DNA of 459 nucleotides from Escherichia coli. Its GTDB lineage: Bacteria; Pseudomonadota; Gammaproteobacteria; Enterobacterales; Enterobacteriaceae. The stretch is from the NCBI RefSeq assembly GCF_003334315.1, contig NZ_QOWR01000133.1. The stretch is one strand, 5' to 3'. The position numbers were made by a program, and so were the translations under genes. The notes beneath the pieces were generated by a model, which was given only the letters and a program-made list of their open reading frames with translations, was not told where the DNA came from and ran no database searches. Shown one piece after another: positions 1 to 459 of the stretch. How positions within the stretch are numbered: position 1 is the stretch's first letter; every line of letters begins with the position of its first letter.

Positions 1-459
1 TCTACTGTTGACTATTTGTGCCGTTATTTCTGGTGCAGAAGGCTGGGAAGATATAGAGGATTTTGGGGAAACACATCTCGATTTTTTAAAACAATATGGT
101 GATTTTGAAAATGGTATTCCTGTTCACGATACCATCGCCAGAGTTGTATCCTGTATCAGTCCTTCAAAATTTCACGAGTGCTTTATTAACTGGATGCGAG
201 ATTGCCATACTTCAGATGATAAAGACGTCATCGCAATTGATGGAAAAACACTCCGGCATTCTTATGACAAGAGTCGCCGCAAGGGAGCGATTCATGTCAT
301 TAGTGCGTTCTCAACAATGCACAGTCTGGTCATCGGACAGATCAGGACGGATGAGAAATCCAATGAGATTACAGCTATCCCTGAACTTCTTAACATGCTG
401 GATATTAAAGGAAAAATCATCACAACTGATGCGATGGGTTGCCAGAAAGATATTGCAGA
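1..459 (+). CDS. ISAs1-family (H-repeat-associated) DDE transposase, internal fragment; 5' and 3' ends lie outside the window. Reading frame 2: first complete codon at nt 2-4, last complete codon at nt 455-457.
   Basis: Seen in sequence: frame 2 is open for all 152 codons, whereas + frame 1 hits TGA at nt 100-102 and + frame 3 hits TGA at nt 9-11. The translation contains motifs I recognise from H-repeat/ISAs1 transposases: [27 protein letters not shown] and [11 protein letters not shown] in the N-terminal transposase-associated region, IAIDGKTLR (first catalytic Asp, codon nt 239-241) and ITTDAMGCQ (second catalytic Asp, codon nt 428-430). Spacing between the two Asp residues is 63 aa, consistent with DDE_Tnp_1-type (IS4-like fold) transposases. 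Recognition is from memory of the E. coli H-repeat proteins (YhhI-like); no database search was run. Gene symbol left blank because several near-identical paralogs exist and the copy cannot be assigned from 152 aa. Confidence 0.93.
1..459 (+). mobile_element. Interior of an ISAs1-family insertion sequence (H-repeat / ISEc1-like element); the element termini and terminal inverted repeats are not in the window.
   Basis: Inference from the CDS call: ISAs1-family elements are about 1.2-1.3 kb and consist essentially of a single transposase ORF, so a window wholly inside the ORF is wholly inside the element. Window GC is 189/459 = 41.2% (counted by hand), below the roughly 50% typical of E. coli-like chromosomes, consistent with a horizontally acquired element. 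Confidence 0.85.

Follow-up and report, generated by a model that had tools for sequence, protein, structure and literature searches.

Does an H-repeat (H-rpt) transposase gene that departs from the Escherichia coli K-12 sequence at a few residues represent a copy of its own, and do these residues matter for the protein? The question is raised by a stretch of 459 nucleotides of E. coli DNA (in the following the window, meaning the whole stretch that was analysed), for which an earlier note had suggested that four residues may differ from K-12 YhhI. The evidence set out below leads, with a probability of roughly 0.93, to the answer that the window comprises codons 30–181 of the H-rpt transposase of a lineage found at the Rhs end in the aspV-yafV interval, and that the residues reflect divergence of this lineage and are likely neutral.

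The window encodes an internal piece of an ISAs1-family transposase

What does the window encode? An open-frame scan revealed a single long open frame, frame 2 on the plus strand (nt 2–457), which comprises 152 codons without a stop; the remaining frames are stop-rich. The 152-residue fragment alone scores well above the cutoff of the curated NCBIfam model NF033564 'ISAs1 family transposase' (226 bits, cutoff 70, profile positions 2–153 of 314). Moreover, when the full-length protein encoded by the E. coli C copy, the window part of which is 100% identical, was scanned against Pfam, PF13808 was found to be followed by PF01609, which is the domain order of the ISAs1 family, and the window straddles the junction between the two domains. 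Residues are numbered by window codon throughout this text, and the position in the full protein, obtained by adding 29, is given in brackets or used where the full protein is discussed. The features are as follows.

2..457, plus strand: internal ORF, codons 30–181 of a 378-residue ISAs1-family (H-repeat / ISEc1-like) transposase, as identified by the open frame, NF033564 and the E. coli C CDS
2..196, plus strand: part of the DDE_Tnp_1-associated N-terminal domain PF13808 (full-protein residues 8–94, ending at window codon 65, i-Evalue 1.6e-33)
218..457, plus strand: N-terminal part of the DDE catalytic domain PF01609 (full-protein residues 102–343, starting at window codon 73, i-Evalue 6.5e-28)
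E. coli C locus L001, 6001–6459: the window, inside the CDS 5915–7051 (WP_000420821.1)

The window comes from within an ordinary, RefSeq-annotated E. coli H-repeat / ISAs1-family transposase gene, which is already known and unsurprising. As in the ISAs1 family generally, the H-repeat contains a single ORF for a DDE transposase built from PF13808 and PF01609, and it matches the NCBIfam ISAs1 equivalog model. Members of the family such as ISAs1 of Aeromonas salmonicida and IS1358 of Vibrio cholerae are more distant and belong to other genera.

Four residues differ from the K-12 protein YhhI

How does the window differ from the H-repeats of K-12? The H-repeat loci of K-12 MG1655 were taken from NC_000913.3, comprising yhhI (after rhsB), ybfQ, ybfL and ybfD (after rhsC), yncI and ydcC (after rhsE) and the yafF remnant adjoining yafV, and the comparison was made by BLAST and by a codon-by-codon table. 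Nucleotide identity to the window amounts to 96.7% for yhhI (15 nt differences), 96.5% for ydcC (16 nt differences), 95.2% for ybfD (22 nt differences) and 95.0% for ybfL (24 nt differences). At the level of amino acids the window is distinguished from YhhI only by the following four residues.

164–166, plus strand: Ser55 (Ser84), TCA, in SPSKFHE; Ala GCA in YhhI and Ala in all K-12 copies, encoded by GCA or GCG
209–211, plus strand: Thr70 (Thr99), ACT, in CHTSDD; Ser TCT in YhhI and Ser in all K-12 copies, encoded by TCT or TCA
281–283, plus strand: Lys94 (Lys123), AAG, in SRRKGA; Arg AGG in yhhI, ydcC and ybfL, Lys in K-12 ybfD
344–346, plus strand: Arg115 (Arg144), AGG, in GQIRTDE; Lys AAG in all K-12 copies, Arg in the yafV-locus alleles L009, L011 and L012 (see below)

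The other 11 differences between window and yhhI are synonymous (nt 43, 88, 91, 136, 199, 202, 232, 250, 259, 361 and 382), and YdcC adds L26P to the differences seen with YhhI. Estimated by the method of Nei and Gojobori, dN/dS of the window is 0.09 versus yhhI, 0.11 versus ydcC, 0.13 versus ybfL and 0.30 versus ybfD. The K-12 gene yhhI (b3484; RhsB-linked; annotated by PGAP as 'ISAs1-like element ISEc1 family transposase') is the same gene as the window type, with the same length of 378 residues and in the same register; nucleotide identity amounts to 96.6% over 1,280 nt of the element, and 148 of the 152 residues in the window and 368 of the 378 residues overall are identical, the changes from yhhI to the window type being A84S, S99T, R123K and K144R in the window and six further residues outside of it. 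Both elements have the left terminal repeat CAGGGAAAGATCA in common, but they reside at different chromosomal loci, and yhhI terminates with the stop codon TAA whereas the window type terminates with TAG.

All four flagged differences are real, and the earlier note was accurate to the single residue, as YhhI departs from the window at each of the four positions (with Ala, Ser, Arg and Lys) and no further difference had been missed. The description of the exchanges as conservative holds as well (Ala/Ser, Ser/Thr, Arg/Lys and Lys/Arg), and tabulating the differences in the suggested alignment against YhhI, YdcC, YbfD and YbfL brought up no identical K-12 copy. The note had also reasoned that 100% identity to a known copy would mean that its reference residues were wrong. 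Such identity does exist, the segment being identical for example to WP_000420821.1 and WP_000420818.1, but the differences from K-12 stand nevertheless.

Three of the four substitutions fall into highly variable positions

Are the substitutions likely to affect the protein? The 120 best homologues of the 152-residue fragment were aligned. Most of the homologue matches are partial, and proteins of about 194 residues (P0034, P0042, P0064 and others), annotated as 'H repeat-associated protein' or 'DDE_Tnp_1-associated family protein' and divergent past about window position 116, look like frameshifted translations of H-repeat pseudogenes. Such frameshifted partial proteins inflate the apparent variability beyond about position 116 unless they are filtered, and the columns were ranked after filtering to 41 non-frameshifted representatives. 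In this ranking of the 152 columns by variability Ser55 is 4th, Lys94 11th, Thr70 14th and Arg115 74th. The question, also put in the earlier note, whether the four positions vary across the family is herewith answered in the affirmative for three highly variable columns, but the column of Arg115 is only middling. Alternation between Lys and Arg is common at columns 94 and 115 of the family alignment. Within the domain structure, Ser84 is located at the end of PF13808, Thr99 in the inter-domain linker, and Lys123 and Arg144 in the N-terminal part of PF01609. The window further contains two conserved Asp residues that may be catalytic, as suggested for the first of them by its conservation and its position in PF01609.

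239..241, plus strand: Asp80 (Asp109) in VIAIDGKT, presumably the first catalytic Asp of the DDE triad; found in each of the 118 aligned homologues and intact here
428..430, plus strand: Asp143 (Asp172) in IITTDAMG, presumed second catalytic Asp; Asp in 39 of the 41 non-frameshifted representatives and intact here

The candidate for the Glu of the triad, E306 in HWHVENKLH, lies outside the window, and all four substituted positions are located away from the conserved Asp residues. The substitutions are conservative, are situated away from these Asp residues and in three of four cases occur in highly variable columns, which makes it most likely that they mark the lineage without selective consequence and do not alter function. 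Searching the PDB by sequence did not bring up a solved structure of any relative. Among the 90%-cluster representatives of the homologues none contains the full combination of Ser, Thr, Lys and Arg (STKR), the nearest being P0044 with STKK.

The window type is common and located beside yafV

How frequent is this sequence and where in the chromosome is it found? A megablast search of 5,426 complete E. coli genomes detected H-repeat matches in 5,311 of them, the median genome having 5 matching places. The best 40 records listed are all 100% identical over the 459 nt, and in 848 records of the 5,426 complete genomes the best place, annotated as 'ISAs1 family transposase', is at least 99% identical, which puts the window type into roughly 16% (about one in six) of complete E. 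coli genomes. In the plasmid collection no exact copy of the window was found and the best match was 97.8% identical, indicating that the allele is chromosomal.

Six exact copies were inspected, those of E. coli C, 720632, AR_0011, Combat13F7, ECONIH6 and KL53. In all six the 378-codon ORF lies directly upstream of and convergent with yafV, which is followed by ivy and fadE. The association with Rhs that characterizes H-rpt was found in five of the six, where the H-repeat directly follows an Rhs core gene, which is intact, frameshifted or 5'-truncated, and the small ORF WP_001101839.1; in E. coli C the Rhs core was lost to an IS1, which also truncated the small ORF to WP_012777340.1. Nucleotide identity to the K-12 H-repeats ybfL, ydcC and yhhI is likewise high, at 95.5–96.6% across 1,280 nt. 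The host interval of the window-type copy is dnaQ-aspV...yafV-fadE, and the element occupies the distal end of the Rhs element. Furthermore, a query spanning the junction to yafV matched 889 records with at least 99% identity, a number close to the 848 window matches at this threshold. The locus assignment is based on the six sampled genomes and on these agreeing counts, out of about 850 near-identical copies, and the window's own copy could in principle be a rare copy at another site. In the E. coli W genome paper this interval is listed as the Rhs region b0215–b0221, which is occupied in W but empty in K-12 (PMC3032704).

Erosion of the Rhs element upstream of the window-type H-repeat has taken different courses in different strains. 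In E. coli C an IS1A is found between a ykfM fragment and the truncated downstream ORF (L001 4285–5484) and the Rhs core is gone, and in KL53 (L015 1–1614) a truncated tssG, a baseplate gene of type VI secretion, abuts the 5'-truncated Rhs core, implying a deletion within the adjacent T6SS cluster.

K-12 retains only the 3' end of this copy

Why then is there no counterpart in K-12? The K-12 pseudogene yafF (b4503), located between yafU and yafV, is the same copy at the same locus with the same degenerate right end as the window type, but its 5' part of about 1,000 bp including the whole window region is absent, as is the preceding Rhs element. The K-12 sequence L005 3599–4428 is 99.88% identical to L001 6771–7600 of E. 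coli C, the identity extending into yafV, and upstream of it there is no match. Within this segment the yafF region spans L005 3599–3878, equivalent to L001 6771–7050 and to the 3' approximately 280 bp of the element. For comparison, the E. coli C element (L001 ~5768–7050) is 96.5% identical to the yhhI element. Because the 5' approximately 1 kb at the yafV locus is deleted in K-12, no K-12 gene matches the window exactly, and the H-repeat copies that survive in K-12 are paralogs of the window type.

Several alleles occupy the position beside yafV

Is STKR simply the signature of the yafV-locus paralog? This notion was rejected, as alleles with other residues at the four sites, ASRK and ASRR, hold the same position elsewhere. 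A query reaching from the window to yafV is covered to at least 80% in 2,813 of 5,426 genomes, so that about half of the strains contain an H-repeat abutting yafV, and the records of this junction query that are not among the 889 at 99% or more are about 96–97% identical. Five such non-window alleles were fetched, from SMN197SH3, CM135829, ETEC1747, Z0117EC0040 and 2013C-4538 (L008–L012). They have position and orientation relative to yafV in common with the window type and each of them follows an Rhs element, but they are only 95.4–96.5% identical in the window and their Rhs tips differ (dsORF-h1, ydcD-like). SMN197SH3 and CM135829 are of the type ASRK, and ETEC1747, Z0117EC0040 and 2013C-4538 of the type ASRR, as opposed to STKR in the window type. 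Premature stops are found in four of the five, at codon 93 in L008 and at codon 18 in L009, L011 and L012.

One of these records deserves a remark of its own. The locus L010 (NZ_CM135829.1 2033995–2041595) comes from a record labelled 'strain DH5alpha' (4.83 Mb) and contains an intact Rhs core as well as two H-repeats, an additional partial one and, beside yafV, a full one of the ISEc1 type. Because MG1655 keeps only the yafF remnant there, NZ_CM135829.1 does not seem to derive from K-12 at the yafV locus and the record may be mislabelled.

How are these alleles related? In a neighbour-joining tree of 11 near-full-length copies the window-type copies form their own long branch, and over 1,280 nt the window type is 95.5–96.6% identical to all other compared copies. 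Relative to eight other near-full-length copies, a comparison in which K-12 ybfD was left out as too truncated, the window type has 15 fixed differences in the 1,280 nt, eight of which are located in the window (nt 88, 91, 136, 164, 199, 209, 250 and 282). Among the compared copies, only those of the window-type lineage have Ser55 and Thr70. The earlier idea of a distinct paralog or allele instead of an exact K-12 copy is borne out by these data, as no K-12 H-repeat is identical and the fixed differences delimit a separate lineage. In terms of the alternative posed by that idea, the window type is both: its copy is specific to the yafV locus, and it is one of several alleles found there. STKR is the signature of one allele class beside yafV that co-occurs with one Rhs variant.

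It could be imagined that the allele is instead a mosaic created by gene conversion, with Lys94 originating from a ybfD-like copy and Arg115 from an ASRR-type copy. Multi-copy IS sequences within a genome do undergo conversion, and the two residues are indeed found in the presumptive donors, Lys94 in K-12 ybfD and Arg115 in other alleles of the yafV locus. However, the fixed sites, eight in the window and 15 element-wide, are evenly spread and absent from the eight other near-full-length copies, and the window type sits on a long branch of its own. Moreover, the alternation between Lys and Arg recurs family-wide at both columns, so that homoplasy suffices to explain the sharing. A mosaic origin is therefore improbable, and divergence of a separate lineage is the preferred explanation.

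The element has a degenerate right end and an intact reading frame

Can the window-type element still move? A repeat search of the window-type element for terminal inverted repeats gave nothing useful because its right repeat is degenerate, and the ends were resolved by lining up several copies. In yhhI, ydcC and ybfL the canonical ends are CAGGGAAAGATCA... on the left and ...TCGTA-ATCTTGCCCTG on the right, and the yhhI element measures 1,291 bp between the terminal repeats. The right end of every window-type copy, and of the K-12 remnant too, reads GTAATACCCCG, which deviates from the canonical ATCTTGCCCTG by 5 mismatches in 11 positions and has lost the terminal TG (L001 7051–7061 in E. coli C, equivalent to L005 3879–3889 in K-12; the same in L006, L007 and L013–L015). 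At loci that are 100% identical to the window the element thus does not have the matching terminal repeats of a complete IS, and no obvious direct repeat was noted in its flanks as displayed. The right end of the ASRK and ASRR alleles L008–L011, GTCTTACCCCG, is also degenerate and likewise lacks the terminal TG, so that these copies too are probably immobile. In 2013C-4538 (L012) the right end is canonical and is separated from yafV by about 180 additional bp.

As a rule a DDE transposase requires both ends of its element. The decay of the right repeat with loss of the terminal TG suggests that the window-type copy can probably no longer move and is passed on with its locus. For H-rpt no transposition was observed (PMC3032704), and a mobilome preprint describes ISAs1 as lacking a clear circular-DNA signal.

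Left-end sequences are found a second time in front of the element. A solo fragment of the H-repeat left end, CAGGGAAAGATCACCGGTGTGCC... (L001 5596–5628), is located 175 bp upstream of the true left end, with the same arrangement in L006, L007 and L013–L015, and a stretch of about 80 nt (L001 5517–5595 versus 5770–5848) is 81% identical to the left end of the element. These left-end fragments between the Rhs downstream ORF and the element look like debris of earlier H-repeat insertions or rearrangements.

All six window-type copies have an intact ORF. They differ from each other by at most 2 nt, and all of these differences are nonsynonymous (T277S, T277P and R355K). Codon 277 (L001 6743, CDS nt 829, outside the window) encodes Thr in E. 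coli C, Ser in 720632 and Pro in AR_0011, Combat13F7, ECONIH6 and KL53, and elsewhere Pro in YhhI and Leu in YdcC; the occurrence of A, T and C at the same nucleotide suggests a hypervariable site.

Could selection have retained the transposase? According to such a scenario either the four substitutions or the entire allele would be functional, and a 'domesticated' protein with altered activity or specificity would be kept intact in an immobile element for the rearrangement of Rhs C-terminal tips, or for some other host function, with Ser84, Thr99, Lys123 and Arg144 as part of the specialisation. The intact ORF in six of six copies despite the decayed right repeat would be consistent with this, as would the low dN/dS relative to K-12 copies (0.09–0.13), and the finding that, of the five other alleles sampled at this position, four are pseudogenes could hint at selection keeping the window type. 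Nevertheless, intactness of the ORF is weak evidence of selection, as copies that are no more than 2 nt apart are young and an intact ORF is to be expected by default, and the low dN/dS may predate immobilisation. Within the lineage the only changes seen are nonsynonymous, which is not suggestive of purifying selection; the four changes themselves are conservative and three of them lie in highly variable columns. Finally, no transposition activity of H-rpt has been reported (PMC3032704). Taken as a whole, a role for selection, be it in the shuffling of Rhs tips or in another host function, is very unlikely.

Lineage divergence as the probable origin of the four residues

How did the four residues arise? 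In the preferred reading, neutral divergence of the lineage beside yafV, the four residues reflect a nucleotide divergence of about 3.5% between the window lineage and the K-12 copies, which is mostly synonymous. The protein, if active at all, would act as a DDE transposase that binds terminal repeats of the type CAGGGAAAGAT. The element itself is probably fixed in place and would have spread between strains by homologous recombination along with its Rhs element. The notion that sequencing errors or private mutations turned a K-12-type yhhI, ydcC, ybfD or ybfL into the window sequence, for which nothing speaks beyond the overall similarity of 95–96.7%, is hardly credible, as the window is separated from every K-12 copy by 15–24 nt differences, mostly synonymous, and as the identical 459 nt recur in complete genomes that were sequenced independently of each other, the number of which runs from dozens to hundreds.

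Significance

What does this mean for the biology of H-repeats in E. coli? The biological weight is very small, as the allele is common and annotated and its differences from K-12 are ordinary lineage divergence; the only mildly interesting point is the intact ORF versus the decayed right end. The window also indicates that its source genome is not K-12-like at the yafV locus. The Ser/Thr pair (nt 164 and 209) together with six other private SNPs marks the yafV-adjacent, Rhs-linked lineage as opposed to the yhhI, ydcC and ybf copies, and these private SNPs could help to assign short reads or contigs to the correct H-repeat copy.
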